Shown here piece by piece: positions 1 to 15,367 of a stretch of DNA of 15,367 nucleotides. Source of the DNA: a virus. Its lineage: Duplodnaviria > Heunggongvirae > Uroviricota > Caudoviricetes. The position numbers and the translations under genes were made by a program. The DNA lies in IMG/VR virus record IMGVR_UViG_2609459844_000007, positions 1 through 15,367 of that record, one strand, 5' to 3'. The notes beneath the pieces were generated by a model that saw nothing but the letters and a program-made list of their open reading frames with translations, made no database searches and was not told where the DNA came from. Numbering within the stretch: the stretch's first letter is position 1; each line of letters begins with the position of its first letter.

Positions 1-84
1 ATGGCGGGTTATTTGTCCTGGTTATTCCCCCGTTGTAAAATCTCTCCTAAACTTAACGGTACGGCACCACACTTCGGGGATGAA

Positions 85-276
85 ATGTTCGCGCTGGTAC
101 TTTTTGTTTGCTACCTGGATGGCGGTTGTGAAGATATTGTTGTGGATGTCTACAACACGGAACAGCAGTGTCTTTATTCTATGAGCGATCAACGGATCCG
201 CCATGGCGGTTGTTTTCCGATTGAGGATTTTATAGATGGTTTCTGGCGACCAGCACAGGAGTATGGTGATTTTTAA
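85..276 (+). CDS. yebW: Small conserved protein, 63 aa (MFALVLFVCYLDGG...), matching my recollection of E. coli YebW; the frame is open from position 1 but ATG at 85 gives the 63-aa product
   Basis: ORF track frame 1..276; internal ATG at 85; convergent with and abutting pphA stop; identity from recalled sequence, not searched. Confidence 0.6.
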   Translation: MFALVLFVCYLDGGCEDIVVDVYNTEQQCLYSMSDQRIRHGGCFPIEDFIDGFWRPAQEYGDF

Positions 277-933
277 TTATTGCAATTGCACAAGAGTCAG
301 TTCGCCCCCAAAGACAGCACCGGTATCAATATAATGCAGGTTGCCAATATCCACGCGATGTCGCAACGGTGTATGACCAAACCAGAAATGATCAGCACCT
401 GTAATTCCCTGCCCTTTTTGGCGTTCACCTAATCGCGAGCGGCTCCACAAGACCTGATGCAAATCAACGTCCTTTTGCCATTCATAAACATCATCTGGAT
501 AATCGGCATGAGCAATAACATGTTTGCCGGTACGACTGTGTACTTCAAGAATAAAGGGCAAATGCTGACATTTTTCCAGCGCCGTTTTCGCTTGTTTCTG
601 TTGATTATCTGCCAGCGCAATAAACCAGTCGCCGCCATTCATCAACCACAAAGACATCTGCTGGGATGCCAGCGCATCCATCGCCATCTGTTCATGATTG
701 CCTCTTACCGCACAAACCCAATGTTGTTCCAGTAACTGCAGACAACGTAAACTTTGCGGCCCACGATCGATAACGTCTCCTACTGAGATAAGTAAATCTC
801 GCCACGGATCAAAACGACAATGCCATAATTTGCGGCGCAACTGCTCAAGACAACCGTGTATATCGCCAGAAAGCCAGATATGTCGCCATTGATGACCCGC
901 AATTCTCTGATAAACGGGCGCAGGCTGTTTCAT
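277..933 (-). CDS. pphA: Serine/threonine protein phosphatase 1 (PrpA), calcineurin-like metallophosphatase, 218 aa
   Basis: Translation contains metallophosphatase motifs GDIHG, GDVIDRG, GNHE; sequence matches recalled E. coli PrpA; track ORF 277..936 begins MMKQ, second Met taken as start. Confidence 0.9.
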   Translation of the reverse strand: MKQPAPVYQRIAGHQWRHIWLSGDIHGCLEQLRRKLWHCRFDPWRDLLISVGDVIDRGPQSLRCLQLLEQHWVCAVRGNHEQMAMDALASQQMSLWLMNGGDWFIALADNQQKQAKTALEKCQHLPFILEVHSRTGKHVIAHADYPDDVYEWQKDVDLHQVLWSRSRLGERQKGQGITGADHFWFGHTPLRHRVDIGNLHYIDTGAVFGGELTLVQLQ

Positions 934-1065
934 CAATATTTTCCTCCCGCGCTAAAGATCACATAATCTTAACAAGAATGTTAAAAAACGCTGGACTCAG
1001 ACAGTAGAGTGTGTGTTATGGTTGACTATAAAGTCAGCGAAGGAAATGCTTCTGGCTTTTAACAG

Positions 1066-1098
1066 ATAAAAAGAGACCGAACACGATTCCTGTTTTCG
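1066..1098. repeat. Left prophage-chromosome junction: imperfect direct repeat of the sdsR 3'-end sequence (ataaaaagagaccgaacacgattcctgttttcgtc), about 29/33 identical to the copy at 14764..14795
   Basis: Direct sequence comparison of the two copies; 8-bp identical block agaccgaa (1073..1080) bounded by mismatches is the likely crossover region. Confidence 0.65.
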
Positions 1099-1397
1099 TC
1101 AACAAACAACAAAATCTTTTAGAATTAATGTGTTAAATAAATTTATGCTCATCTTTTAATCCCTAACACATACCATTACATATTAATACATTCAATTAGT
1201 TACCATTTTTTTCGAGTTTTTTAGAGAAATTTTCGGGAATATTTCAGATCAATCCATGCATACACAAGCAATTCCTGTATTGAATAATTCCGTAGCAATT
1301 ATGTAAAATCACCTCCGGCTGATTTTCATTCAAACTCGCGCTATCGAACGTCCATCAGCCAGCCGTGACACGTTCTTGCATACGACGTGCTACGGTT

Positions 1398-1535
1398 TCA
1401 TTTATCTCCGACCGGAAACTTCTTATACAAAGTCGATACGCCAACATCATAGATGATCGCCACCTTCTGGCGAGAAACTCCTGATGCAATTAGTCGTCCA
1501 GCCTGCGCCCATTGCTCCGGCGTGAGAGTAAGACA
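1398..1535 (-). pseudogene. 3' remnant of a Pin/Gin/Hin-family serine DNA invertase gene (C-terminal HTH only, about 45 codons, no start codon, catalytic domain absent)
   Basis: Minus-strand translation ...LTLTPEQWAQAGRLIASGVSRQKVAIIYDVGVSTLYKKFPVGDK* resembles the recalled C-terminal DNA-binding end of PinE-type invertases; in-frame stop immediately upstream. Confidence 0.7.
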
Positions 1536-1610
1536 TTAAACTGTAGAAAAATCTCATTAAACTTAATATAATAATAAGTTACAGAATTATCTTTACTGAA
1601 TAATAGATAT

Positions 1611-2156
1611 ATGAACATTAGTGAACTTAAAAACTGTATACACTATGAAGTAATAGGTTATAAACGCCCTTTCTCCTGGCGAAAAGCAATTGTTCGCGCA
1701 ATAAAACACAGAAGATTACGTTATTTATTTTGGTGGCGCATAGCAAAATATCTTTTTGATAAAGGCGGATACCGGCGAAAGGTTGCAGGAAAAATAGAAC
1801 GCTTCATTCTTGATAAATACAATGTAACCGTTCCCTTAACTGTAAATATTGGTAAAGGGTTCGACATATCTTATCTCAATGGCGTTGTTATCGGTCACAA
1901 AGTTACAATAGGTGAAAATTGTTCAATTAAGCCTGGAGTAACTATTGGACTTCGCGGTGAATTTAATGATATGGATATTGTCATAGGAAATAATGTAACC
2001 ATCGGCTGTAACGCCACCATCCTTGGTGGCAAAGTGCATATAGGGAATAATGTAAAAATAGGAGCTCATGCATTGGTACTGCATGACATTCCTGATGACT
2101 CCACATTCATTACTAAATTTCACTCTGAAATTATTTATAACTCATCTCACACATAA
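1611..2156 (+). CDS. Hexapeptide-repeat (left-handed beta-helix) acyl/acetyltransferase, 181 aa, CysE/LacA/WbbJ/NeuO-like superfamily
   Basis: Visible [LIV]-G-x4 hexapeptide repeats (VIGHKVTIGENCSIKPGVTIG, IVIGNNVTIGCNATILGGKVHIGNNVKIGAHALV); markedly AT-rich relative to neighbours; convergent with tfa. Confidence 0.8.
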   Translation: MNISELKNCIHYEVIGYKRPFSWRKAIVRAIKHRRLRYLFWWRIAKYLFDKGGYRRKVAGKIERFILDKYNVTVPLTVNIGKGFDISYLNGVVIGHKVTIGENCSIKPGVTIGLRGEFNDMDIVIGNNVTIGCNATILGGKVHIGNNVKIGAHALVLHDIPDDSTFITKFHSEIIYNSSHT

Positions 2157-2166
2157 TTCCGTTTAA

Positions 2167-2739
2167 TCACAGCTCTGGCCATACGATATCCGGGGCTGTA
2201 TTTATATCAATCCGACTCACTAATACCCGGTATTTTTTCCAGGAAGATAGCATCGAGACTTCCTCATCAGTTGCCATTTCAAAATTAACAGCATCCTGCA
2301 GAATTGTTATGTTATCAGTCGCTTCCTGGATTAATCTTGCCTTTTTCTCTTCCGCCTCCCGGATCCGGAACAGTTTTTCTGCTTCTGCATCTTTCACCCA
2401 AGCTGTGCCGTTCCACTTCTGAAACTCCCCATCCGGCGACAACCAGGTGACATTTTTCGGTAATGGGCCAAGTTCAGAAATAAATAACGCGTCGCCGGAA
2501 GCCACGTCATAGACGGTTTTACCCCGATGGTCTTCAATGAGATGCCACGATACCTCATCACTGTTGAAAACAGCCACAAAGCCAGCCGGAATATCTGGCG
2601 GTGCAATATCGGTACTGTTTGCTGGCAGACCTGTATGAGGCGGAATATATGCGTCACCGTCACCAATAAATTCATTAGTTCCGGTCAGCAGATTATAAAT
2701 TTTGATGGTTCGTGATTGTTCACTCATTCTGAATGCCAT
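2167..2739 (-). CDS. Tail fibre assembly protein (Tfa family, P2 gpG-like), 190 aa
   Basis: C-terminal region ([18 protein letters not shown]...[25 protein letters not shown]) matches the recalled conserved Tfa C-terminus; start overlaps tail fibre stop. Confidence 0.85.
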
Positions 2740-3854
2740 TATGCAAGCCTCACAATATAGTTAAATGCGATGTTTTTGACGGTGTTTTCCGCGTTACCAG
2801 CAGCGTTAACGGTGATGGTGTGTCCATGTGAGCCAATTGCAACGGAGTGCGTATGTGCACCAATACCGACAGTATGTGTATGCGCCCCAGCACTTGCTGC
2901 AGTACCTGATACTGAGTGGGTATGCGCGCCAGCAGAATTCGTTGCACCTAAGTGAGTTTGAGCAGAGTTCGACGAAGCTACTCTACCGGAGCTAACGTTA
3001 GCATTATCCCCCTGAGATATCGGATGCGTATGTGCACCTGCTGAAGCTGCTGTTCCGCTAACGCTATGGGTATGCGCACCAGTGTTATTCGTAGATTTAG
3101 TTCCATAATCAAACGATGATGTGTTTTTTGTCCCTAAATCTGTATTTGAAGCACTGGCGCTGTGGGTGTGCGATTTAATGCCGTCCTGTTCCTGGCTAAG
3201 AACATCACGTCCACTTGCAGGCTTACCTTTGATTGTCCAGCCACGCATATCAGGGATCACGCCTGACGGATAAGCGGCTGCAAGTTTCGGGTATGCAGAC
3301 TTGTCAAAAGTCTGTCCCTGCATCAGAGCATAACCAGATGGAACTGTATCTGATGGCCACGGGATCGGGGCACCTACAGGAAAGGTCGAATTATTTTCCA
3401 AACCAAGATATTTAAGGACATCAGCAACAGAGCTTTTTGCCAAAATATCTCGCCCAACCTGTGTCAGGTCAGCCAAATTAGCGGTATCTTGATTGGTAAA
3501 ATACGGTAATTTGTTTTCGGATGCTGAAAGATTAGCAAGTGCGGTAAGTATGGCATTAATTCTCTGATAGTTCTTATCTAATGCAGACGACATTTTTGCG
3601 ATAAAGCCTGCCTGATCGCCATCGTCCTGTACATCCAGTCCACTTTCATTTGCTGTATATTGTGCCATTGCAGATGCAATAAAGCTGGCCTGCCGAATAA
3701 CCTTATTGACTTGCGCACTGGATGCTTTCCCTGCTGTAAATCCGGATAAAAGCGCAGGCAACGCTTCCCATTCCTCCTGCGGCATAACATTGGCATTTTT
3801 ACCCGTTGCAAACGCTTTAAAGTCATTTTTCGCCATCAGAGTAATACTCCCCAT
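2739..3854 (-). CDS. Phage tail fibre protein (P2 gpH-like N-terminal region, collar-type C-terminal domain with GAHTHS repeats), 371 aa
   Basis: Segment [37 protein letters not shown] resembles recalled P2 gpH; repeated [19 protein letters not shown] motifs; position upstream of tfa. Confidence 0.8.
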
Positions 3855-4516
3855 GCTCCTATATCAAAACCACTGATGAATTCGTTATCCATATCAAAAC
3901 CAAAAAATTTTGAGCTTTCCGATGGGGTTTCCACCGAAGGTGTTTCAATGCCACCCGCCCATACCCCGGCGGCTTTTACTGTGAGATACCCCTGTTTAAT
4001 TGCCGCAATTAACTCACGCGATACATCTGAAATATCAGTATCAGGAAAGACCCAGACCGATATCGTCATGTCCTGGTTATCGACTATCTGCATTCGCAGC
4101 CCGGCTCCTGCTGTTACAGCGTCAAGAATTGCCGGAAGCGAATCATTCCGTCCGTCCCAGTTATTAATCGCAATCTTCGCTTTAAGAATGACACGATAGG
4201 TTTCATCGCTGAGGTACATGTATCCGGAATCAGGATCGTATGGTCCCTGCCATACCCCCTGATCATATCCAAGCCCGTCGGTATCCCAGCTGAAATAGAC
4301 ACCTGAGATAGGCTGGCTGACAATACGGCTACGTCCGATCCACAATCCCAGAATGTCAAGTTGCACACCAACCGCAGAGTCAATATCAAATGCAGTAATC
4401 AGCCCTCTGGTGGCAGCCGCAACATCAATAAGCGGCCGGGTCATCAGATCAACATGTGCAAGAAATTTAGGTTTGGTGGCGTGATAGTTTGTGATTAGTT
4501 CGGTGTATTTGCCCAT
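3836..4516 (-). CDS. Putative phage baseplate/tail protein (P2 gpI / e14 YmfQ position), 226 aa
   Basis: Long ORF between baseplate-J fragment and tail fibre in J-I-H-G order; overlapping start/stop coupling with both neighbours; family assignment by position only. Confidence 0.5.
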
Positions 4517-5094
4517 GACTCCACCGTTATAACGATATTTTCCGGGGTACAGGACGCAGATTCGTTATATCTGATATCAATGTTTGATGACGACAAAGCC
4601 CCCGGGGATTTCCCAATCGTCAGTTCCTGAATATCGTAATAGCGTGCATTCCCGCCACTCGCCACGCCAAGATTCGCCGGTGAGTAAATGCGACTTAAAA
4701 GGACTGAATCACCAATCGTCAGACTATTGATATAGTCGGAAATAGCCTGCTGGATCTGCTGCCCTATCTGTGAGGTATAACCCGTAAAAACTTTTAATTT
4801 AATCCGGGCATAAACAGGCACATCACTGGAACGCGAGAATTTGATTACATGGGGATTGCCGTATTTATCCGGAACCGTAACGGATGTTGTACCGTGAGTG
4901 GCTGTCCCCTGGCCTTTATTCCCTCTGATAGCCTGAGCAATATCCGTCACATCACCGCCATCCACAATTACAGCAACAGAGTGTGGCGGTAACCCGTTAC
5001 CGTCCTCCGAACCAGTATCGTTTTCATAGAGTTTGTGGCGGGTTACACCGGTAACATTAGAAACAGCACCATCCAGTGCTTCAAATGGGGTTAA
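4495..5094 (-). pseudogene. Baseplate J-like protein, C-terminal fragment (5' end deleted)
   Basis: ORF has no plausible native start (track begins at a TTG inside the junction); reading frame runs directly out of the truncated dnaC-like gene; position upstream of gpI-like gene. Confidence 0.6.
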
Positions 5095-5497
5095 CCACAA
5101 TCACTGTCTGACCGTCTTTCAGCAGGCGATTCCCGATAGCTGCCGCTAAGTGATTCTTCCCGGTACCAGGTTTTCCGCTGAACGCAAAATTTGTACACCC
5201 GGTCATCAGTTCATCGGCGATGGATTTCGCCTGGCTTAACGCGTGTCGCTGGCCGTCGTTCTGCACCTGGTAATTCGCAAACGAGCATTTACGGTGCAAC
5301 GGCTGGATGCCTGAGCGATTCAGAATTTTTTCCACCCGCAACTGGCGATTCAGGCGGTTGATCTCCTCGCTACGTTTCTGGCCTTCAGCAAGTTGCCACT
5401 CGCGCCACTCCGCTACCGTTCTGAATGGTGCGGTTACATGTGGCGGAGTCAGTCGGCGGATGCGTTCCAGAACGCCGCCTGTCGCAATATTTTTCAT
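5081..5497 (-). pseudogene. DnaC-like phage replication protein (helicase loader, YdaV-like), N-terminal 135 aa only; reading frame leaves DnaC homology after ...GQTVIVV and stops
   Basis: Strong resemblance to recalled E. coli DnaC N-terminal half including Walker A GKPGTGKNHLAAAI; DnaC homology ends at about 5093 then NPI-stop. Confidence 0.8.
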
Positions 5498-5503
5498 GGT
5501 CCG

Positions 5504-6298
5504 TTACCCCCTGAAGCCTGGCGGGATCGCACTGTCCGGCAACGAGACGGTGTTAACCTGTCGGAGCAACGTCTCAGGCCGAACACCTTTCGGCGCGAAC
5601 AGGCCCTGGTATTCATTGGCGATACTGTGTCGAATCACCTGCTCGGGTGTAAAACCCTGCTGGCGGAATTTTTCCAGCTCCCGTATCGCCCCGTTAGCGC
5701 CCTGCTCCGTTCGAATCGGTTTTCGCAATGCCTGCCTGAACCGGACCCACTCATGCCAGAGTGTTTCCGGCAACCAGTCAGGCAGCTCAATAGCCTCCGG
5801 CTCAAATTTTTTAGACGCTCGTTTTTGGCGAGGGGGATTTAGGGGGAGATCAGTATTTATATCTTCCTCTTCCTCTTCCTCTTCCTCTGGTAACGCTTTT
5901 TGATCCATTTGTGTAACGCTGCCAGCGTTACCTTTTCGTTTCAGTTCGCGTATTTTTGTAACTCGCTCGTTTGTAACCGCCCGTTTTTTAGAGCTTTTTC
6001 CGTTATGACGTTCAAAGTTAGGTAGAGAAAGCCCAACGTCATTTTCGACCAGCCATCCAACCTGAATTAACGCATCAGCAAAACCAGCCATAAAAGTGAT
6101 GCGATCTATTGCACTTTTTGTAACGCCGCGAGCGTTACAATCTGCATTACCGTCTATCATTTGTTGATCCGCCCATGCCCAGAAGCGAATAACCTTCCCT
6201 AATGCGGCATCTGGATCAATATTCAGAATCTCAGCAAGCCTGAATATTTCCGGCTTATCCGGCGTAATAACCTCGAGCTTTATCCAGTTTGAAGCCAT
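5504..6298 (-). CDS. Phage replication initiation protein (YdaU-like), 264 aa, with internal poly-Glu tract
   Basis: Position between CII-like gene and dnaC-like gene as in Rac (ydaT-ydaU-ydaV); family assignment by position and recollection. Confidence 0.65.
   Translation of the reverse strand: MASNWIKLEVITPDKPEIFRLAEILNIDPDAALGKVIRFWAWADQQMIDGNADCNARGVTKSAIDRITFMAGFADALIQVGWLVENDVGLSLPNFERHNGKSSKKRAVTNERVTKIRELKRKGNAGSVTQMDQKALPEEEEEEEEDINTDLPLNPPRQKRASKKFEPEAIELPDWLPETLWHEWVRFRQALRKPIRTEQGANGAIRELEKFRQQGFTPEQVIRHSIANEYQGLFAPKGVRPETLLRQVNTVSLPDSAIPPGFRG
5863..5888. repeat. Simple sequence repeat (cttcct)x4, encoding the EEEEEEEE tract of the replication protein on the minus strand
   Basis: Direct reading of sequence. 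Confidence 0.9.
5913..5931. promoter_or_regulatory. 19-bp palindrome gtaacgc-tgcca-gcgttac (copy 1 of 3), candidate protein-binding site/iteron
   Basis: Perfect 7-bp inverted arms with 5-bp spacer; same arms recur at 6120 and 6312. Confidence 0.45.
6120..6138. promoter_or_regulatory. 19-bp palindrome gtaacgc-cgcga-gcgttac (copy 2 of 3)
   Basis: Direct reading; 207 bp from copy 1. Confidence 0.45.
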
Positions 6299-6311
6299 TT
6301 GTTTTCACCTT

Positions 6312-6330
6312 GTAACGCTCGCAGCGTTAC
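6312..6330. promoter_or_regulatory. 19-bp palindrome gtaacgc-tcgca-gcgttac (copy 3 of 3), just upstream of the replication gene start
   Basis: Direct reading; 192 bp from copy 2. Confidence 0.45.
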
Positions 6331-6375
6331 ATTTAACTGATACCGAACAAAACAATCCGGCACGATTAATTTCAA

Positions 6376-6798
6376 TCAATGCACTACGACAGAATCGCCG
6401 GGCGACCCACCACCGCTGAAATGTGCTTTCCGGTAAACGGCCTGGACTGCATCATCATGCGCATCAATTGCCGTACTCAACGCTTCCTGCGCCGCCAGTA
6501 ATGCACGGCGTTCCAGGGTATCGAAGATGCAGAGTCGGTGACGCAGCTCGCGCGGAAGAATTGCCAGAACCGCAGGGATCAGTTTCTGAATTTTTTCCCT
6601 TTGCGCTTTCGTTTCACCTTTCAACCAACGGTGATAGATATTCTGCTGATTGTTCCAGTCCTTGCCTGGTACAAGGGGCAATTCGCCGCCCCCCTGGCGC
6701 AGATATTCTTCAGTAATTGCGTTAGCGACCCACGCCTGCCCTTTTTCGGCTGCCAGGGCTAACAACACTGATTCGATGTGCTCATGCCTGATTTTCAT
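6376..6798 (-). CDS. ydaT: YdaT-like (CII-like) prophage regulatory protein, 140 aa
   Basis: Sequence resembles recalled Rac YdaT; overlaps upstream Cro-like gene by 4 nt; position downstream of cro. Confidence 0.7.
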   Translation of the reverse strand: MKIRHEHIESVLLALAAEKGQAWVANAITEEYLRQGGGELPLVPGKDWNNQQNIYHRWLKGETKAQREKIQKLIPAVLAILPRELRHRLCIFDTLERRALLAAQEALSTAIDAHDDAVQAVYRKAHFSGGGSPGDSVVVH

Positions 6799-7037
6799 GA
6801 ATCAACCGCTCCTATGCTGTTTTCGCTATGCTTACCGTCTGGGGGGAATACATCGTCAAGTCCACAATGAGCGCCAAGCCGATTAAGGGTAGAAACAATT
6901 TTTCTGCACTCCTCTAGTCCAGGGGTACGAAAATTTGCTTCGTAATTTGCCAGTCGGCTTTGTATCCACCCTAACTGAACAGCAAGTTGTCTTTGAGACA
7001 GCCCAAGCTGTTTTCGATATGTTGAAATTTTGTTCAT
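6795..7037 (-). CDS. Cro-like HTH DNA-binding protein (YdaS-like), 80 aa
   Basis: HTH LGLSQRQLAVQLGWIQSRLANYEA; divergent from repressor gene; GGAGG Shine-Dalgarno 6 nt upstream of ATG. Confidence 0.75.
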   Translation of the reverse strand: MNKISTYRKQLGLSQRQLAVQLGWIQSRLANYEANFRTPGLEECRKIVSTLNRLGAHCGLDDVFPPDGKHSENSIGAVDS

Positions 7038-7061
7038 TGAAAACCTCCGATGACAATTTTA

Positions 7062-7122
7062 AACACACCTTGTGTTATATGGTCAAGCTGTTTTGTGTTT
7101 TATGTAAATCACGATTCGTGAT
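7062..7122. promoter_or_regulatory. Right operator region: inverted repeats aacac-N5-gtgtt (7062..7076), degenerate copy (7085..7099), atcac-N5-gtgat (7108..7122) at 23-bp spacing, between divergent cro-like and repressor genes
   Basis: Direct reading; candidate -35 TTGACC on minus strand (complement of 7081..7086) for the cro-like gene. Confidence 0.6.
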
Positions 7123-7133
7123 ACAAGGATGCA

Positions 7134-7553
7134 ATGGAAAAAGAAAACGAAAAAATTGCCGCCAGTAGGCTCAATGACAAAATTGCAATGCGTCTTAAAG
7201 AGCGCAGGCAGAAGCTTGGTTTATCTCAAGGAAAACTTGCTGAAATCTGCGGATGGACGCAATCGCGTATAGGTAACTATGAGGCGGGCAGCAGAAATGT
7301 TGGAGTGCATGACGCTGTCGTATTGGGAAAGGCACTTGGCATATCTCCTCCTGAGCTCCTCTTTGGAGAACAGGAATCTTCTGAATTGTGGTTAAATGAA
7401 TCCCAACGAAAACTTCTTGAGTTGTTTAACCAGCTACCGGGCTCAGAACAACAACGAATGATTGAGCTATTTGAAGTCCGGCTAAAAGAAATCGATGAGT
7501 ATGTAGAAAAATATTTGAGAGGCAGGCTTAAAGATAATCCCCCACCGGAGTAA
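7134..7553 (+). CDS. CI-like prophage repressor, XRE-family HTH, 139 aa, no LexA/S24-like peptidase domain
   Basis: HTH LGLSQGKLAEICGWTQSRIGNYEA nearly identical in the recognition region to the Cro-like protein; divergent arrangement across operators. Confidence 0.8.
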   Translation: MEKENEKIAASRLNDKIAMRLKERRQKLGLSQGKLAEICGWTQSRIGNYEAGSRNVGVHDAVVLGKALGISPPELLFGEQESSELWLNESQRKLLELFNQLPGSEQQRMIELFEVRLKEIDEYVEKYLRGRLKDNPPPE

Positions 7554-7583
7554 TGATCTTGCTATCACAGTAATATGCCAATC

Positions 7584-7608
7584 AGCCCGCTATCAGCGGG
7601 CTTTTTTG
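7584..7608 (+). terminator. Rho-independent terminator after repressor gene (agcccgct-atc-agcgggct + TTTTTTG)
   Basis: Perfect 8-bp stem, 3-nt loop, U-tract. Confidence 0.75.
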
Positions 7609-7637
7609 TACCATCATCATATGACACTCACCGAAAA

Positions 7638-7679
7638 AACACATTTCGTGTTGACATAAGAAAACGCATTGTGTTTAAT
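7638..7679 (+). promoter_or_regulatory. PL-like promoter (TTGACA 7651..7656, 17-bp spacer, TTTAAT 7674..7679) with overlapping operator aacac-N5-gtgtt (7638..7652) and a second degenerate operator (7661..7675)
   Basis: Direct reading; same operator motif and 23-bp phasing as in the right operator region. Confidence 0.6.
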
Positions 7680-7853
7680 AAGCATATCCAAACAACGCCC
7701 CATCAGAGAACGGCAGGACAATACCTCGAGTTATCCAGTCACTGAACAGGGCTAAGTAGCCAGCCTGAGGCATACGAACATGACGGCAGTTGTTGATTGA
7801 TACAAAGCGCAGTAGATAAAACGTTCCGCCACCCGGCGTTAAGGGGAAAAAAG

Positions 7854-8072
7854 ATGGTTGGTGAAGATCTGGTTGTTATTAACGGTCAATTGTGCAGCAA
7901 AGATGTGGCAGCCATGCTTATTAGCAAGGTTCTTCCAACTGTGCTGGAGGTCATTGCAGAAAAAGTAAAGGCTGGTCGTCCAGACAAGGAAGTTGAAGAG
8001 GCGGCAAAAACAGTTGTTCATGCCGCTACAGAAGCAATTATTTTGAAGAGCCTAGTTTCGCCCAAGCCTTAA
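7854..8072 (+). CDS. Hypothetical small protein, 72 aa (MVGEDLVVINGQ...), first ORF downstream of PL-like promoter
   Basis: Strong SD AAGGGG 7 nt upstream of ATG at 7854; T7 tract 8085..8091 downstream; no recognisable family. Confidence 0.5.
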   Translation: MVGEDLVVINGQLCSKDVAAMLISKVLPTVLEVIAEKVKAGRPDKEVEEAAKTVVHAATEAIILKSLVSPKP

Positions 8073-8232
8073 GTGAATCGGCGCTTTTTTTAGCATCACG
8101 TTCATTGAGTAGTGACAAAAACTCATTCTCAGCATTCTCGATTTCCGAGAAAAATTCTTGATGAGTTGTTTCTCGCTGCGATCTGATGCTGAAAACTAAA
8201 GCAAGTAGCCAGGCTTTGTCTTTATTATCCAT
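8038..8232 (-). CDS. Hypothetical small protein, 64 aa (MDNKDKAWLLALVFSIRSQRE...), convergent with and overlapping the 3' end of the 72-aa ORF
   Basis: SD AAGG 7 nt upstream of ATG; candidate sigma70 promoter on minus strand (-10 TATACT = complement of 8267..8272, -35 TTTACC); no family recognised. Confidence 0.35.
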   Translation of the reverse strand: MDNKDKAWLLALVFSIRSQRETTHQEFFSEIENAENEFLSLLNERDAKKSADSLKAWAKLGSSK

Positions 8233-8418
8233 AGGAATACCTTATTACTGGTTGTGTGAGAACTCCAGTATACCACCGAGCCTGAAGTGGTAAAAAGACA
8301 GGCGCACAACACGAAGGCGCATTTCCGGTATTCATAAAGAGTCGGACTTGTCTGTTAAATTTAAATGGTGGGAGTGCGCCTCCGGTTGTAAATAACGACA
8401 TTGCTATGTGTAGTCTTT

Positions 8419-8462
8419 GGCGGCATCAGTTCTACTCCGTGGCTGCCCTGCCGCCCCTTTTT
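8419..8462 (+). terminator. Terminator-like GC stem (ggcggca ... tgccgcc) followed by TTTTT, inside noncoding region upstream of kilR
   Basis: Direct reading; large loop, so strength uncertain. Confidence 0.35.
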
Positions 8463-8627
8463 AAAGTGAATTTTGTGATGCGGTGAATGCGGCTAAGCGC
8501 ACGCGGCACAGTTAAAAGCATCAGTGTTATGGGTGGATTATCCGGCGTTAATTGTTAACTGGTTAACGTCACCTGGAGGCACCAGGCACCGCATCGACAA
8601 AATTCATTTGTAAAAATGGTGATAATT

Positions 8628-8849
8628 ATGATTGCTCATCACTTCGGAACTGATGAAATACCACGTCAGTGTGTGACCCCTGGCGATTATGTTCTTCATG
8701 AAGGTCGGACATATATCGCCTCGGCAAACAATATTAAAAAGCGAAAACTTTATATTCGAAGCCTGACAACAAAAACATGCATTTCTGACTGCATGATTAA
8801 AGTCTTCCTCGGTCGTGATGGTTTACCTGTAAAGGCGGAGTCATGGTAA
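8628..8849 (+). CDS. kilR: KilR-like cell-division inhibitor (Rac kil), 73 aa
   Basis: Sequence [35 protein letters not shown]... matches recalled Rac KilR; gene order kilR-ydaE-racC-recE; track ORF starts 12 nt upstream at 8616 without an SD. Confidence 0.8.
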
Positions 8850-9019
8850 TGACTAAGAAAATAAAATGTGCTTATCACCTTTGCAATAAAGAAATTGAAG
8901 AAAGCAAAATCATTACAAGACCACTTCATTTCATGCGTGAAGTTATACCAACGACGGAAATGAAAAAATATTGTAGTGAAATCTGTGCCGAAAAAGACCA
9001 GATGGCACACGAACTTTAA
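8849..9019 (+). CDS. ydaE: YdaE-like small Cys-rich metal-binding protein, 56 aa (not in ORF track because under 60 aa)
   Basis: Manual translation [56 protein letters not shown]; start overlaps kilR stop (TAATG); position as in Rac. Confidence 0.7.
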   Translation: MTKKIKCAYHLCNKEIEESKIITRPLHFMREVIPTTEMKKYCSEICAEKDQMAHEL

Positions 9020-9093
9020 TTAACTGACTATCCGAAACTGAATTTATGCCAGCAATGGCAGGGATTCGCTCAACCTTAATTAAGGAGAAAAAC

Positions 9094-9369
9094 ATGATTA
9101 CCAGTTATGAAGCCACTGTTGTTACTACTGATGACATTGTTCACGAAGTCAGCCTGGAAGGAAAGCGTATTGGCTACGTGATTAAAACAGAAAATAAAGA
9201 AACCCCTTTCACTGTGGTTGATATCGACGGTCCATCAGGCAACGTTAAAACGCTTAACGAAGGCGTCAAAAAAATGTGCCTGGTGCATATCGGAAAGAAT
9301 CTGCCCGCAGAAAAAAAAGCCGAATTTCTGGCAACTCTGATTGCAATGAAATTAAAAGGTGAAATCTGA
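9094..9369 (+). CDS. racC: RacC-like protein, 91 aa
   Basis: AAGGAG SD 6 nt upstream of ATG at 9094; sequence matches recalled Rac RacC; track ORF starts further upstream at 9046. Confidence 0.8.
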   Translation: MITSYEATVVTTDDIVHEVSLEGKRIGYVIKTENKETPFTVVDIDGPSGNVKTLNEGVKKMCLVHIGKNLPAEKKAEFLATLIAMKLKGEI

Positions 9370-9374
9370 AAGAA

Positions 9375-9399
9375 ATAGCCTGCGTATGGCGCAGGCTAT
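9375..9399 (+). other. Perfect 10-bp inverted repeat hairpin (atagcctgcg-tatgg-cgcaggctat) without U-tract, between racC and recE
   Basis: Direct reading. Confidence 0.6.
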
Positions 9400-9469
9400 G
9401 AACAGTGTGTATCCGGCAAGATTATTCACTGAACAAACGAATTTTAATCTGAGTTGAGGTTAAAAAACA

Positions 9470-12400
9470 ATGAGCACCGATAAACAAGTTTACCCACTGT
9501 ATTACGAAGCAAAAAATGACAAAGTAAGAAAACGTCTCGGTATTAAAGGCGGTTTTTACTGGGCTGAAGCGAAAAAATTATCCATTGCCATCTCCCGTGG
9601 TGCTGTTGCGATTGACGATGCTGGCTACGATGAAGATGACTTCAAAAAACCTGTTCGCGTCAATTTGCCCGTTGTTGATGACCTCCCGCCAGAAGGCGTA
9701 TTTGATACGGAATTCTGCAACCGTTACGAAAAAGGCGGGGAAGATGGCATCACAATGGTATTTATCGCGCCCTCACCCTCTGCGCAGGGCAAACCAGCCG
9801 GCACTGACAACACCAATGTTAATGGCGAAGACATGACGGAGATTGAGGAGAATATGCTACTCCCGATTTCTGGCCAGGAGCTGCCCATTCGCTGGCTTGC
9901 TCAACACGGCAGCGAAAAACCGGTAACGCACGTTTCACGCGACGAACTCCAGGCATTACACATTGCACGGGCTGAGGAACTACCAGCTGTTACTGCCCTA
10001 GCTGTTTCCCACAAAACCAGCCTGCTCGATCCGCTGGAAATTCGCGATCTCCACAAACTGGTGCGTGATACTGACAGAGTTTTCCCTAATCCAGGCAATT
10101 CAAGCCTGGGACTGATGACTGCTTTTTTCGAAGCATACATGAACGCAGACTACACCGATCGCGGTCTGCTGACAAAAGAGTGGATGAAAGGAAATCGTGT
10201 TTCACGCATCACGCGCACGGCTTCCGGCGCTAATGCTGGCGGCGGGAACCTCACCGATCGCGGCGAAGGTTTCGTTCACGATCTGACGTCACTGGCGCGC
10301 GACGTAGCCACTGGCGTACTGGCTCGTTCAATGGACGTGGACATTTATAACCTTCATCCGGCACACGCTAAACGTGTCGAGGAAATTATCGCTGAAAATA
10401 AACCGCCCTTTTCTGTTTTCCGCGACAAATTCATCACCATGCCTGGCGGGCTGGATTATTCCCGCGCCATCGTGGTTGCCTCCGTAAAAGAAGCACCAAT
10501 TGGGATCGAGGTTATCCCCGCACACGTCACTGAATATCTGAACAAAGTACTGACTGAAACTGATCATGCCAACCCTGATCCGGAAATCGTGGATATTGCC
10601 TGCGGTCGCTCCTCTGCCCCGATGCCGCAGCGTGTAACAGAAGAAGAAAAACAGGATGATGAAGAAAAACCGCAACCATCTTGCGCAATGGCAGATGAAC
10701 AGGCAACGGCTGAAACAGTGGAACCGGATGCAACTGAACATCATCAGGACACGCAGCCGCTGGATGCTCAGTCACAGGTAAATTCTGTTGATGCGAAATA
10801 TCAGAAACTGCGGGCAGAACTCCATGAAGCCCGGAAAAACATTCCGCCCAAAAATCCTGTCGATGCAGACAAATTACTGGCTGCCTCTCGCGGAGAATTT
10901 GTTGAAGGGATTAGCGACCCGAATGATCCGAAATGGGTTAAGGGGATCCAGACCCGCGATTCTGTGTACCAGAATCAGCCAGAAACGGAACAGAACGACC
11001 AGAAAGCGGAACAGAACAGCCCAAATACGCAACAAAACGAGCCAGAAACGAAACAGCCTGAGCCAGTAGTGCAACAACTGGAAACGGAGAAAGTTTGCAC
11101 CGCCTGCGGTCAGGCTGGCGGCGGCAACTGTCCTGACTGCGGCGCGGTGATGGGCGACGCAACGTATCAGAAAACCTTTAATGAAGAAAATCAGAATGAA
11201 TATCAGGAAAAAGGTCTGGAGGAAATGGAAGGTGCTGAACATCCGCACAAGGAGAACGCTGGCAGCAATCCGCATTGCGATTGCAGTGATGAAGCTGGTG
11301 AAGCGACAGCACCTGTAGTAACTGAAATCATGTGGCCGTCATATTTCGAGCCTGGCCGCTATGAAAACCTCCCGAACGAGGTTTATCACTCCGCCAACGG
11401 AATAAGCAGCACAATGCTGAAGGATGCCCGCATCAGCCTGATGTATTACCACGGACGGCACATTGCCGGAACTATTCCGGGCGAGGAAAGTGATGCATTG
11501 CTGCGTGGGCGAATTATTCACAGCTATGTTCTGGAAACGGATAAATTCGCTGATGAGTATGCCATTCCGGTACCGGTTCCTGAATATGTGGTTACTACTT
11601 CTAACGAACTGATCGCCATCATTAAAAAACACAATGCCAGTCTGCCAGCACCGATGACACCAGAGCAGATGAAAGAGTGGATCGAAAGCTACAACAGCAC
11701 TCTTATACAGCCACTGTCGGTAAGTGCCGGGGCCGAAGAAACAGGCATCCTTTACGGTTCGCTTCCGGAGGAATTCCGGCGTATTCCTGAGGGGGAAAAA
11801 CACACAGCATCAGCAATGAAAGCCTGTATTAAAGAATACAACGCAAACCTCCCTCCTCTGTTGAAAACCAGTGGATCACGGGAGCAACTTCTGGAGCAAA
11901 TTGAAACTGTAGATCCAGAACTGGCAAAAAAAGAACGTGCTAAATCTTTGCCTTACAACATCAGTGGCACAAAAGAGCAATTAACCGAAATCGCACGGAA
12001 AATTCGCCCGGAACTGGTGACACTGGAAGACTGGCAAAAACGCCAGCAAGAAGAAAACGCCGGGAAAACGTTTATCAGTCCGGATATGTATGAACAGGCA
12101 AAAAATATTCACGCTGCACTGCAAAACAATACCGATGCAGCAAGGCTACTCAACCACCCGGATCGCAAATCTGAAATCAGCTATTTCGGGTTTGATGAAG
12201 AAACCGGGCTGGAAATCAGGGTCCGTCCTGATATCGAAATCCGGCTGCCATACGAAAGCATTTGCGCCGACGTGAAGTCAGTCAGCCTCGGTTATGTGCG
12301 ACAGGAACGACTGAAAGATCGCCTGCACCGTGAAATTATTGAGCGTGATTATCACCTCAGCGCAGCAATGTATTGCGATGTGGCAAACCTGGACAAATTT

Positions 12401-12766
12401 TTCTGGATCTTCGTCAACAAAGATGCTGGCTATCACTGGGTGGCCGTCGTGGAAGCCTCGCAGGAACTCCTGGAACTTGGTCGACAGGAATATCGCCGGA
12501 CGCTACGACAGATAAATGAAGCTCTGGAGACAAACAACTGGCCAGCACCGATTACCGAAAGTTATACCGACGAATTAAACGACTTTGATCTTCGTCGTCT
12601 TGAGAAGATGATAAATAACCTGCCTTCATCAGGTGATCCAGAAGCAGAACAAAAATTTATTGCTCTGGAAAATACGCTGAATGCTGCACGACCACATCTG
12701 GGAGAATTATATGAGGCGTATAAAACGACACTGACAGATATGAAACCAGAATATATCGGCTCCTGA
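9470..12766 (+). CDS. recE: RecE-family exonuclease VIII homologue, 1098 aa, with divergent C-terminal PD-(D/E)XK nuclease domain carrying a ~150-aa insertion and a C-terminal extension
   Basis: N-terminal/central ~600 aa closely resemble recalled K-12 RecE (e.g. [43 protein letters not shown]); Cys4 cluster [16 protein letters not shown]; PD...DVK motif at 12227..12276. Confidence 0.85.
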
Positions 12767-12774
12767 TATTTACT

Positions 12775-12798
12775 ATGGCGGTGTAGCCTCACCGCCAT
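12775..12798 (+). other. Perfect 9-bp inverted repeat hairpin (atggcggtg-tagcct-caccgccat) between recE and ralR
   Basis: Direct reading. Confidence 0.6.
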
Positions 12799-12829
12799 AA
12801 CAAAACTTTATTTTATGAGAGAAAAGACA

Positions 12830-13024
12830 ATGCGGTATGAAAAAGTCAAACCATGTCCGTTTTGTGGTTGTCCATCAGTAACGGTGAAAGCCATTTCAGG
12901 ATATTACCGCGCAAAGTGTAACGGATGCGAATCCCGAACTGGCTATAGTGGAAGTGAAAAAGAAGCACTCGAAAGATGGAATAAACGAACTACTGGAAAT
13001 AATAATGGAGGTGTTCATGTATAA
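12830..13024 (+). CDS. ralR: RalR/Lar-like restriction alleviation protein, 64 aa
   Basis: MRYEKVKPCPFCGCPSVTVKAISGYYRAKCNGCESRTGY... matches recalled Rac RalR (Lar); Cys4 motif; track ORF begins at upstream ATG 12815. Confidence 0.8.
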   Translation: MRYEKVKPCPFCGCPSVTVKAISGYYRAKCNGCESRTGYSGSEKEALERWNKRTTGNNNGGVHV

Positions 13025-13205
13025 AATTACTGCCACTATTGAAAAGGAAGGTGGCACTCCTACTAACTGGACAAGGTACTCAAAAACAAAATTAACCAAA
13101 TCAGAATGCGAAAAAATGCTCTCAGGTAAAAAAGAAGCAGGCGTTTCCAGAGAGCAGAAAGTAAAGCTGATAAATTTTAATTGCGAGAAGCTTCTGTCCT
13201 CGTGA
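13017..13205 (+). CDS. ydaC: YdaC-like small protein, 62 aa
   Basis: GGAGG SD 5 nt upstream of ATG 13017; overlaps ralR stop; resembles recalled Rac YdaC; track ORF starts at 12948 inside ralR. Confidence 0.65.
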   Translation: MYKITATIEKEGGTPTNWTRYSKTKLTKSECEKMLSGKKEAGVSREQKVKLINFNCEKLLSS

Positions 13206-13260
13206 GTTGCATTATATACAAATTAGAACTTCATAGCTGATTATTAAAAATCAACCACCC

Positions 13261-13289
13261 CCGCCAGTATTCTGTATATTTACTGGCGG
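13261..13289 (+). other. 9-bp inverted repeat hairpin (ccgccagta ... tactggcgg, 11-nt loop) between ydaC and xis
   Basis: Direct reading. Confidence 0.55.
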
Positions 13290-13305
13290 TCATATCGTAA
13301 GAGGT

Positions 13306-13592
13306 ATGGCAATGAATCTTGTGACACTAAAAACGTGGGGAAACTCAGATATCCAGATAACCCACCATCAATATCAACGCTGAGACGATGGGCAAGGAAT
13401 GGAAACATTTATCCTGCACCTGAACTACACGGGAGGAGTTACAGGGTGGTTCCGGAGGCTTTCTATATCAACCCAAATAAGGTTGATACCGATATAACAC
13501 ACCATCAGCCTAATGGGCGACAAGGGAGAGACAGTCCGTTACTGGAGAAGTTAAAACATGCAGCGGAAAAAATACGATCCCAATTTGCCTAA
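13306..13592 (+). pseudogene. Excisionase (lambda Xis-like winged helix) with apparent -1 frameshift in a G4 run (13337..13340); downstream frame opens with GTG at 13335
   Basis: Frame 1 from ATG 13306 encodes MAMNLVTLKTWG then stops; frame 3 continues KLRYPDNPPSISTLRRWARNGNIYP...; together they align with the recalled lambda Xis N-terminus (LTLQEWNARQRRPRSLETVRRWVRE). Confidence 0.55.
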
Positions 13593-14634
13593 AAACTTAA
13601 CATATCGAAGGAGGGACAAAGCATATTACTGGCGCAACCCTATGACGAAAGAAGAATTTACACTAGGTAAAATTTCAAGAAGAGATGCAGTAGCGCAGGC
13701 AATTGAAGCAAATCATTATATATACAAAAACTACTCTCCTGCTGCCTTAATTGAAAAGCTTAAAGGGTTCGACTCATTTACTATGGCAGACTGGATTGAA
13801 CGTTACAAAACGATTCTTATAAGGAGAAAAGTGTCCAGAAATACTTATAAAATTCGGGTAAATCAACTGGAGACAATAAAAGAAAAATTGGGAGGGATTT
13901 TACTGACAGAAATAACCACTCGCCATATTGCCGAGTTTCTTGATTTGTGGATTGAAGGAGGGAAAAACACGATGGCAGGATCAATGCGTTCTGTGTTATC
14001 TGATATGTTCCGCGAGGCCATTGTTGAAGGACGTATATCTCAAAATCCAGTAACGCCAACAAGAGCACCGAAAATAGTAGTTACAAGAGAACGGCTGAAA
14101 CTAAAGACATACAACTGCATCAGGGAGGCAGCAGATCAACTTCCGACATGGTTCCCATTAGCTATGGACTTAGCCCTTGTAACAGGACAACGTCGCGAAG
14201 ACATAACGAATATGCGGTTCAGTGAGATTTATGATGATCGTCTCCACATCAGGCAAATTAAGACAGGAATGATGATTGCTATCCCCCTGTCACTCAGCCT
14301 TCCTGTCGCTGGTTTACGACTTGGTGCAGTAGTTGAACAGTGCCGCATGGTAAGTAGGGGGGATTATCTAATCAGTGCCGGGATTAGAAAAAACAGCCCT
14401 GACGGTAGCATTCACCCGGACGGCCTGACAAAGAAATTTGTCGCAGCCAGAAAATTAACAGGTATCCAGTTCAGTGAAAACCCACCAACTTTTCACGAGA
14501 TCAGAAGCCTGGCTGGACGATTGTACAAAGAAACATGTGGAGAAGAATTTGCTCAGCGTCTACTTGGCCACACATCGGAGAAGACAACAAAAATGTATCT
14601 TGATGAGAGAGAAAAAACGTACTTACTGCTCTGA
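13558..14634 (+). CDS. int: Tyrosine integrase, lambda Int family, 358 aa
   Basis: N-terminus aligns with recalled lambda Int (PPNLYIRNNGYYCYRDPRTGKEFGLG versus [27 protein letters not shown]); catalytic-region motifs [21 protein letters not shown]-terminal Tyr in TTKMYLDE. Confidence 0.9.
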
Positions 14635-14710
14635 TTTTAACGTAAATGGATTGTTAAATGTATTTTGGTTGTGATATAACCAAAAAGACCGGAATACAGA
14701 AATTCGAGTA

Positions 14711-14730
14711 AATTTCGGGGAATTTCGGGG
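14711..14730. repeat. Tandem direct repeat aatttcgggg x2 in the int-proximal att arm; candidate arm-type integrase binding sites
   Basis: Direct reading; related motif aaattttcgggaat at 1227..1240 in the opposite arm. Confidence 0.4.
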
Positions 14731-14763
14731 AGACGTTTGCAACTAATTGATTTTAAATACAAT

Positions 14764-14795
14764 TAAAAAAAGACCGAATACGATTCCTGTATTCG
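14764..14795. repeat. Right prophage-chromosome junction: att-core copy that is also the terminator hairpin of sdsR
   Basis: Imperfect direct repeat of 1066..1098; perfect hairpin gaccgaatac-gattcct-gtattcggtc. Confidence 0.65.
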
Positions 14796-14868
14796 GTCCA
14801 GGGAAATGGCTCTTGGGAGAGAGCCGTGCGCTAAAAGTTGGCATTAATGCAGGCTTAGTTGCCTTGCC
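14764..14868 (-). ncRNA. sdsR: SdsR (RyeB) RpoS-dependent small RNA, about 105 nt
   Basis: Minus-strand sequence GGCAAGGCAACUAAGCCUGCAUUAAUGCC...GGACCGAAUACAGGAAUCGUAUUCGGUC(U)n matches recalled SdsR; sigmaS-type -10 CTATTCT (complement of 14874..14880) upstream; terminator hairpin plus U-tract. Confidence 0.85.
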
Positions 14869-14955
14869 CTTTAAGAATAGATGACGACGCCAGGTTTTCC
14901 AGTTTGCGTGCAAAATGGTCAATAAAAAGCGTGGTGGTCATCAGCTGAAATGTTA

Positions 14956-14996
14956 AAAACCGCCCGTTCTGGTGAAAGAACTGAGGCGGTTTTTTT
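14956..14996. terminator. Bidirectional rho-independent terminator (accgcccgttct ... agaactgaggcggt flanked by A5 and T7) serving ryeA (+) and yebY (-)
   Basis: Direct reading of stem and flanking U-tracts on both strands. Confidence 0.65.
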
Positions 14997-15025
14997 ATTG
15001 GAAATCAAAAGGCTATTTTAGGTAA

Positions 15026-15367
15026 TTAACAGAGTTTTTCAGCTCGTTCTATAAACGGTGCCAGACTCATTTTTTCGCCGGGATTGTTAGGATCATCAAT
15101 CTGAATCACCGAAATGGGTTGGGCTTTAGTCTTCCCACTGGCAACTTCCTTTTGTGCGATATCGTTTAAAGGATACTGCACGAGGGTACTTGGGTTAATG
15201 ACATACAAAGCATTACCCGGTCTGCAAGTCAGCATCACCTCTTCGCGATTAAACGCCCATTTGTCTTTACCCACTTCAAAACGACTGACGGTAATCACCT
15301 GCGGTGCAGCCAGCGCCGCTGCAGAACTGGTGAGTAACAGAAACGTCAGAATACTTTTTTTCATCAT
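15026..15367 (-). CDS. yebY: YebY, DUF2511-family secreted protein with signal peptide, 113 aa
   Basis: [23 protein letters not shown] signal peptide; matches recalled E. coli YebY; start codon is the last triplet of the window. Confidence 0.85.

Follow-up and report, generated by a model that had tools for sequence, protein, structure and literature searches.

Genes and conservation of the kilR locus

The window analysed here (the whole 15,367-nucleotide (nt) stretch, positions 1 to 15,367 of the IMG/VR virus record IMGVR_UViG_2609459844_000007) is the early-left arm of a Rac-like lambdoid prophage, read toward kilR. The subject of this work is the interval at 8233-8627 immediately upstream of that gene, which we read as a probable non-coding leader of kilR, carrying a DicF/KilS-type small RNA (sRNA) and an STnc100/PasD-type structured RNA domain. 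The gene order is a cro-like gene (6795-7037, minus strand), a repressor gene (7134-7553, plus strand), a 72-amino-acid (aa) open reading frame (ORF; 7854-8072, plus strand), a divergent 64-aa ORF (8232..8038, minus strand), the interval itself, kilR (plus strand), and then ydaE-like, racC-like and recE genes. The gene downstream of the leader, and served by it, was identified as:

8628..8849, plus strand: kilR, encoding an FtsZ inhibitor (Kil protein, phrog_294, E = 3.5e-36; annotated in RefSeq in a 99%-identical prophage)

Prophages 99% identical over 7700-9100 were present in 29 complete E. coli genomes, with parts of the stretch in 4,634 of 5,426 genomes, and in the RefSeq and GenBank records of near-identical prophages nothing is annotated between the 64-aa ORF and kilR. 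This agrees with the initial annotation of the window, which had seen no credible coding sequence in 8233-8627. The sole sizeable ORF in the interval (8225-8401, minus strand, ATG start, 58 aa) has no PHROG match, and its frame is lost by frameshifts in Rac-SA53 and K-12 Rac. The interval had also been described as GC-rich, which it is not (46.3%, against 45.4% for the whole window), and as rich in secondary structure, which it is: the RNA 8400-8640 folded at -86.1 kcal/mol compared with -67.5 +/- 4.3 kcal/mol in dinucleotide shuffles (z = -4.35), a structure beyond chance, with helices that covary across relatives.

Positions 8271-8657 aligned end to end with the sieB-kilR spacer of K-12 Rac (local alignment, score 563), where kilS (b4833) is annotated. 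The initial placing of sieB, ydaF and ydaG at this position in Rac was therefore inaccurate; the genes that differ from Rac are those upstream of the interval and not the interval itself, with the 64-aa ORF (phrog_22868) standing where Rac has sieB and the 72-aa ORF (phrog_23495) where Rac has ydaF/ydaG. The same alignment bears on the suggestion that a protein-coding gene, be it sieB or some other, has decayed in the interval. In its favour the ATG-initiated 58-aa ORF and the position near Rac sieB could be cited. That ORF, however, is unmatched and frameshifted, the interval is the homologue of a Rac intergenic region and not of sieB, and its relatives in RefSeq and GenBank carry no annotation at this place; no match of the interval to sieB or to another protein family covering most of it was seen, and its conservation is explained by covariation at the RNA level. 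We rejected a decayed gene as extremely improbable.

A small RNA with KilS and DicF parts

The upstream part of the leader contains the following elements:

8306..8389, plus strand: leader helix H1, ~20 base pairs (bp), 8306-8327 with 8369-8389 (minimum free energy (MFE) fold and homology to Qin)
8353..8361, plus strand: candidate extended -10 promoter TGTTAAATT, start site ~8368 (read from the sequence and from homology to K-12 KilS)
8368..8462, plus strand: KilS/DicF hybrid sRNA, putative 95-nt primary transcript (homology to K-12 kilS, b4833)
8389..8418, plus strand: RprA-like arm (local alignment to K-12 RprA nt 51-79)
8405..8456, plus strand: DicF RNA, Rfam RF00039 (60.9 bits, gathering score 48, E = 1.7e-11, model positions 1-52 of 52)
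8419..8462, plus strand: DicF terminator hairpin GGCGGCA...UGCCGCC followed by U5 (Rfam structure line, terminator scan and coordinates)

An sRNA had been one of the possibilities raised initially for this interval, and it is borne out by the DicF match, above the gathering score in the Rfam covariance search, and by the homology of the locus to the annotated kilS of K-12. RefSeq prophages with this locus (our records H1-H20 and H61-H90) list no non-coding RNA at the DicF site, so the DicF variant is unannotated even though its Rfam score exceeds the gathering cut-off. What had been noted as a GC stem with a T5 tract at 8419-8462 is the DicF terminator. It keeps a DicF-type loop, UACUCCGUG, at 8433-8441, in place of the KilS-type terminator hairpin, which is not present in the window. 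The first ~50 nt of the sRNA are nearly identical to KilS, and the hairpin loop differs. Judged by its sequence, the window RNA is a hybrid, since the 5' part of KilS is joined in it to a DicF-type hairpin. Of the 5,426 complete E. coli genomes, 86 carry the full-length hybrid and 1,493 the KilS-type 5' part.

In K-12, RNA interaction by ligation and sequencing (RIL-seq) led to the prediction of KilS and a northern blot confirmed it; the sRNA is reported to be made from a transcription start site of its own (PMC8175672; Bar et al. 2021). The mapped 5' end of K-12 KilS falls at 8368 in the alignment, and upstream of it the two sequences are nearly identical, so that the motif at 8353-8361, which lies at the right distance from 8368, is a candidate KilS-type promoter in the window. 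DicF, an sRNA of the Qin prophage, blocks ftsZ translation with its 3' part and pairs through its 5' end with xylR and pykA (PMC5069750). The predicted duplex of the DicF 3' part with the ftsZ leader (-32..+6) was of similar energy for the window (-27.6 kcal/mol) and for K-12 DicF (-27.9 kcal/mol). The 5' arms differ: among 113 DicF loci sampled from IMG/VR and other records, the canonical arm UUUCUGGUGAC was found in 106 and CU[A/G/U]UGUGUAGUC in the other seven, including the window, where the canonical arm is not present and the arm reads UAUGUGUAGUC.

RprA is a core-genome gene under Rcs control. The window arm at 8389-8418 aligned with RprA nt 51-79 at 27 of 29 positions with one gap (score 43, against a maximum of 32 in 2,000 shuffles), and 8399-8418 (AUUGCUAUGUGUAGUCUUUG) matched the first 20 nt of processed RprA (AUUGCUGUGUGUAGUCUUUG) at 19 of 20 positions; K-12 DicF had no such similarity in the same direct alignment. 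The processed form, RprAproc, consists of the last 47 nt of RprA and is active on some targets (PMC9262595). The similarity is confined to the 30-nt arm. Rfam RprA (RF00034) scored 31.7 bits against a cut-off of 70, and the window RNA is not a member of that family; a similarity of the RprA 5' half to the 5' part of the structured domain was marginal (p ~0.03) and for this reason was not relied on. The processed RprA arm is almost identical to the arm of K-12 KilS (minus strand) as well as to that of the window sRNA. This likeness of the RprAproc, KilS and window arms suggests that a core-genome sRNA and prophage sRNAs have a common ancestry, or that there is seed mimicry between them. The paper on KilS (PMC8175672) mentions neither RprA nor DicF, and a literature search for DicF copies with an RprA-like arm found no description of one.

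The H1 leader is homologous to part of the Qin ydfC-dicF spacer of K-12 (score 74, against a shuffle maximum of 46), with compensatory differences between the two (AAAGCGCA/UGCGCUU in Qin, AAGGCGCA/UGCGCCU in the window). A direct repeat of AGGCGCA had been reported here, and two copies do occur (8300-8306 and 8315-8321, the only ones in the window), but they do not hold together as a unit: the second copy alone lies in a conserved helix, pairing with UGCGCCU (8375-8381) inside H1, and the first, which is not conserved in K-12 Rac, is probably fortuitous. It is the one structural feature of the initial annotation that is not part of a known RNA element. A 190-nt DicF precursor of K-12 has an RNase III-dependent 5' end (bioRxiv 10.1101/2023.04.14.536235), which by coordinate count falls in the 3' strand of the H1-homologous Qin helix.

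A structured domain and its closing helix

Beyond the DicF terminator the leader contains a second RNA element, with the kilR start 33 nt after its helix P1 and with the following parts:

8472..8600, plus strand: STnc100/PasD-type structured RNA domain (Rfam STnc100 match and custom covariance model, 104 bits)
8478-8485 with 8587-8594, plus strand: helix P1, ATGCGGTG/CACCGCAT, the outer stem in the STnc100 match
~8489-8504, plus strand: helix P2
8546-8551 with 8563-8568, plus strand: helix P4, a palindrome, the inner hairpin in the STnc100 match
8572-8576 with 8582-8586, plus strand: helix P5, loop AGGCA, window type CCUGG/CCAGG
8509..8561, plus strand: pseudoknot of CAGUUAA (8509-8515) with UUAACUG (8555-8561, in the P4 loop), predicted from a register-free test
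8455..8619, plus strand: extended closing helix, ~30 bp with one bulge, 8455-8485 with 8587-8619 (MFE)

Two features pointed out initially belong to this domain. The palindrome CGTTAATTGTTAACTGGTTAACG at 8546-8568 is helix P4, and the long-range complementarity is P1, its 3' strand correctly placed at 8587-8594 and its 5' strand off by one (8478-8485, not 8477-8484).

In E-value mode, Rfam STnc100 (RF02076) matched 8446-8635 with 44.4 bits and E = 5.6e-8, and its relatives likewise scored under the cut-off (K-12 dicF-dicB 34.4 bits, phage P7 43 bits, a free-standing copy 44.2 bits). A pattern scan of viral contigs returned many diverse relatives, 26 of which were used to build a custom covariance model. 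This found 72 copies in 55 sequences, one of them in the window (8472-8600), and the one model matched the window, the dicF-dicB and kilS-kilR spacers of K-12, P7 and the free-standing copies at 61-107 bits, barring two weak hits. In the alignment 87.5% of cells were paired overall (P1 93.7%, P2 99.7%, P4 90.6% and P5 99.7%), and compensatory changes were seen in 24 of the 32 pairs counted (25 nested and 7 pseudoknot pairs). The covariation score was 0.487, compared with 0.169 in shuffles (none of 500 reached 0.487) and 0.04-0.13 with partners slid. MAFFT with RNAalifold recovered P1, P2 and P5 alone.

For the pseudoknot a set of 47 representatives, under ~92% identical, was used. In 41 of these, 6-11 nt of the P4 loop could pair with the stretch immediately 3' of P2, with 28 different sequence pairs seen, and the longest complementarity had a native mean of 7.04 nt against 5.06 +/- 0.16 nt with loops permuted among sequences (maximum 5.72 in 20,000 permutations). 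P4 itself was of at least 6 bp in 45 of the 47, with 6.9 expected by shuffling. The modelled pseudoknot is well supported but not proven. Beside the helices, the domain has the invariant unpaired motifs GGUGAAU, CUNNGCG (the P2 loop) and GGAGGCA.

The closing helix encloses this domain and runs from the DicF U-tract to the kilR ribosome-binding site. At its base it takes in the GAGG of the Shine-Dalgarno sequence before dicB and, for the window, the opening bases of the kilR one. The domain follows DicF after 25-27 nt in 110 of the 113 loci, and 25-40 nt beyond it lies the start of dicB (~100 loci), of kilR (9) or of another small ORF. A pairing of the 29-30 nt running from the U-tract to GGUG with the 30-34 nt that follow CACC was seen in each of the 29 distinct DicF-linked variants, with a duplex of -33.8 kcal/mol in the window and -26 to -37 kcal/mol across the variants, whatever ORF follows; the 3' strands differ by downstream gene (UUGUUGAGGAC before dicB, UUUGUAAAAAUGG before kilR) and are all complementary. 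As given in the part of PMC5069750 that cites Faubladier 1990, DicF has 3' ends at 53 nt by termination and at 72 nt by RNase III. The RNase III end of the 72-nt DicF (53 + 19 nt) maps inside the closing helix, at ~8476 in the window. RNase III transcriptome papers held no data on this spacer.

These data bear on a suggestion that a late-promoter leader module was recombined before dicB and kil genes and that the domain is its inert relic, persisting by hitch-hiking. Upstream of P1 the sequence (AAAGTGAATTTTGTGATGCGGTGAAT) is similar to the TAAATT -10 region found in free-standing copies, which suggests descent from a promoter-bearing copy, and phage mosaic boundaries coincide with the domain edges. 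Against this, the domain is kept in those 110 loci with all its helices intact, and the context-specific 30-bp extension is still complementary despite differing 3' strands, where drift would erode it. An inert relic is thus unlikely.

In the free-standing copies TTGACA-17-TAAATT stands a few nt ahead of P1, and an intrinsic terminator comes 40-70 nt downstream of it. Those examined (our contigs L013, L086, L089 and L027, and other IMG/VR contigs) are flanked by a Q antiterminator gene (PF03589) and a holin gene, in the late-promoter leader position, and appear to be a short late-promoter leader RNA of these phages. This position agrees with the reported linkage of PasD to PF03589. Tandem arrays were also seen, with 3-5 units at ~250 nt spacing, each of the domain, a different ~25-nt single strand and an intrinsic terminator (L026 367-994; L087 4374-5465 and 8374-8521; L014 2320-3356; L024; L025), and these look like sRNA families sharing one scaffold. 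In another class, downstream of a cI-like repressor gene, the order is reversed relative to the window, the domain being followed by UGCUGUGUGUAGUCUU and a DicF-like terminator hairpin (L005 3445-3667, minus strand; relatives L007, L017, L019, L044, L061 and L112; also L045). In phage P7 (L002 2501-2616; also in D6) the domain is part of the ban operon, which C1 controls, with tRNA genes on one side of it and terB on the other; a sub-threshold tRNA-Sec-like hit lies just upstream of it (2304-2388). A further context was downstream of stx2. Taken together, such varied settings suggest a reusable scaffold.

STnc100 and the related PasD are prophage sRNAs, and the function of STnc100 is described as unclear in the literature; the preprint on PasD and STnc100 contains no occurrence of 'DicF' and does not mention the link. 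It is possible, if tentative, that the domain is a functional RNA module released by RNase III, acting as a scaffold for a common protein, a ligand or RNA polymerase, and this would be compatible with the reading of the interval as a kilR leader, to which it would bring a further layer. The invariant unpaired motifs beside strongly covarying helices and a pseudoknot point this way, as do the use of the domain as the 5' part of free-standing sRNA genes between Q and holin genes, its occurrence in tandem arrays, in the P7 ban operon and downstream of stx2, and the Hfq RIL-seq targets of PasD. On the other hand, the domain has no known partner or phenotype, the literature calls the function of STnc100 unclear, and the window copy is without the 3' single-stranded seed and terminator of the free-standing genes.

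A structured RNA following an intrinsic terminator, between the immunity region and kilR, would also be expected of a tL1-like terminator with nut- or put-type antitermination letting early-left transcription reach kil, recE and int, and long lambdoid operons usually need antitermination. The terminator half of this early suggestion stands; the antitermination signals were not found. No boxA (with up to one mismatch), boxB-like hairpin or N-like protein was found in 7551-8650, nor an arginine-rich N-like ORF between the repressor gene and kilR (the 72-aa ORF has 8% R+K in its first 25 residues), and a nut site with N antitermination was rejected. A put-like RNA was likewise rejected on its architecture: put RNA is ~70 nt, with two stem-loops, just downstream of the early promoter and upstream of terminators, whereas here a 125-nt four-helix pseudoknot lies downstream of the terminator, and neither Rfam STnc100 nor the custom covariance model matched the HK022 immunity region, which carries putL and putR. 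We consider antitermination at this site very unlikely.

Proposed working of the leader and its known relatives

The best explanation of 8233-8627, to which we give a probability of roughly 0.7, is a conserved non-coding kilR leader made up of a divergent promoter, the DicF/KilS sRNA, H1 and the STnc100/PasD-type domain, with a proposed processing and attenuation of its transcripts. It draws on the element identities, homologies, covariation and helix conservation established in the present analysis. The sRNA would be transcribed probably from its own extended -10 promoter, and also by read-through from the repressor-controlled early-left promoter. Its 5' arm would be the KilS/RprA-like AUUGCUAUGUGUAGUC, and its 3' DicF hairpin would present a loop antisense to the ftsZ ribosome-binding site. 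The hairpin would double as an intrinsic terminator at which most transcripts should end, and in this way the terminator would attenuate expression of the toxic kilR. In longer transcripts from upstream, H1 may act as an RNase III entry site, as mapped for Qin DicF. Transcripts that read through would form the 125-nt pseudoknotted four-helix domain, the closing stem of which would grow to ~30 bp as the terminator U-tract and following bases pair with bases just upstream of the kilR start; an RNase III cut in this helix would free the sRNA (compare the 72-nt DicF), the domain and a short-leader kilR mRNA. Published experiments in K-12 are the source for the sites of RNase III and RNase E, for the start site and northern blot of KilS, and for the pairing of DicF with ftsZ; the same processing, the attenuation and any gating of translation we infer for this prophage. 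In K-12, RNase E makes the 5' end of DicF and RNase III its long 5' and 3' forms, and the window has helices homologous to those that carry the K-12 cleavage sites.

Several results weigh against this explanation. The promoter at 8353-8361 fails a simple consensus scan and rests on K-12 homology. The ftsZ duplex energy is a poor discriminator, as KilS, without the DicF loop, still gave -25.7 kcal/mol, and whole-molecule DicF-ftsZ duplex energies were no better than those of shuffles (the values overlap), for which reason the comparison restricted to the 3' part was used. In partition function calculations on masking of the ribosome-binding site, made for full-length and cleaved transcripts, the kilR Shine-Dalgarno sequence was 0.06-0.45 unpaired and the AUG was paired in all constructs, cleaved or not. 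The STnc100 match of 44.4 bits is just under the gathering score of 47, and the STnc100 model has a promoter-proximal part and a terminator that are both absent from the window. A fixed-column count of the pseudoknot was weak (58.8% paired against 51.2%, with a slide of -1 similar); loop registers differ between classes, and the register-free permutation test was therefore used.

A broader proposal has two linked parts: that lambdoid and P1-like phages use the domain as a general scaffold module for a conserved molecular partner, in late leaders, in tandem arrays of sRNAs with different seeds and in RNase III-cut DicF/KilS-kil/dicB cassettes, and that the sRNA is a two-headed regulator, with a DicF anti-ftsZ hairpin and a near-exact copy of the RprAproc arm. 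We regard this proposal as doubtful. If the sRNA were two-headed, the prophage would tap the RprA regulon, and RprA, KilS and DicF, three sRNAs usually handled separately and linked by this locus, would share ancestry. On the leader explanation, a prophage 'gap' unannotated in RefSeq would hold two RNA elements controlling toxic cell-division inhibitors, the 30-bp helix around a pseudoknotted domain would offer a structural explanation for the 1990 report that RNase III processes DicF, and STnc100/PasD RNAs would gain a defined, testable genetic context.

Upstream of the sRNA, the promoter scan found one further element:

8267..8294, minus strand: sigma-70-type promoter TTTACC-16 nt-TATACT with a TG extended -10, for the 64-aa ORF

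This is a good match, and would serve as the promoter of the divergent ORF. A module of 60-90 bp around it (8245-8334) is found, at 84-91% identity, in Shigella phages SfII and SfV, Klebsiella prophages, Cronobacter phiES15 and a Salmonella phage; these unrelated phages have no other match to the interval. Directly 3' of the repressor gene lies a strong intrinsic terminator (AGCCCGCTATCAGCGGGCT followed by T5; 7584-7602, plus strand), so that the early-left promoter must lie within ~7603-7853, where a simple scan found none. Elsewhere in the window, Rfam matched RalA, the RalR antitoxin sRNA (13023-13201, minus strand), and SraC/RyeA with SdsR/RyeB (14761-14905, both strands), ~130 nt past a 358-aa ORF (13558-14634, plus strand). 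If this ORF is an integrase, the prophage end adjoins the ryeA/sdsR locus and not the K-12 Rac site. From recE to the ralR-like ORF there was no ORF of recT size.

Phage lambda has, downstream of its early-left promoter, a structured leader sensitive to RNase III and a terminator in front of an early gene that is dosage-sensitive. The window may be like the lambda N leader with its RNase III site and tL1 in this outline, a structured and putatively RNase III-sensitive leader with a terminator before such a gene, but there is no sequence or structural homology, and the window is without nutL and the N protein. The resemblance to STnc100 and PasD is in helices P1, P2, P4 and P5 and the invariant motifs; the window copy differs in having no promoter, 3' single-stranded seed or terminator of its own and in being embedded in a 30-bp helix inside an mRNA leader. 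Processed RprA and the window sRNA both have an unpaired arm immediately 5' of the terminator hairpin, whereas the hairpin and 5' half of RprA are unrelated to the window sRNA.

K-12 KilS shares with the window RNA its locus directly upstream of kilR (in the 5' untranslated region), its near-identical first ~50 nt with the putative promoter and the AUUGCUGUGUGUAGUC arm, and a downstream domain that scored 90 bits with the custom covariance model. It differs in its loop, UUUUUUUCUUGAAGUUCGG, which is without the CUCCG ftsZ-antisense loop of DicF, and in scoring 39.1 bits on the DicF model (under the cut-off) where the window scored 60.9. With DicF of the Qin dicBF operon the window has in common the full-length RF00039 match and hairpin-terminator with an ftsZ-antisense loop, the downstream domain and closing helix as between K-12 dicF and dicB, and the order of immunity repressor, small ORFs, sRNA, structured spacer and division-inhibitor gene. 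It differs from Qin DicF in its arm (UAUGUGUAGUCUU, compared with UUUCUGGUGACGU, the Qin arm for xylR and pykA), in preceding kilR where DicF serves dicB, and in a shorter upstream leader, that of Qin having ~115 extra nt. As in dicA...dicF-dicB, the sRNA stands in a repressor-controlled early operon just upstream of a division-inhibitor gene, and the locus is a rare variant of known elements and an ordinary member of known prophage modules.

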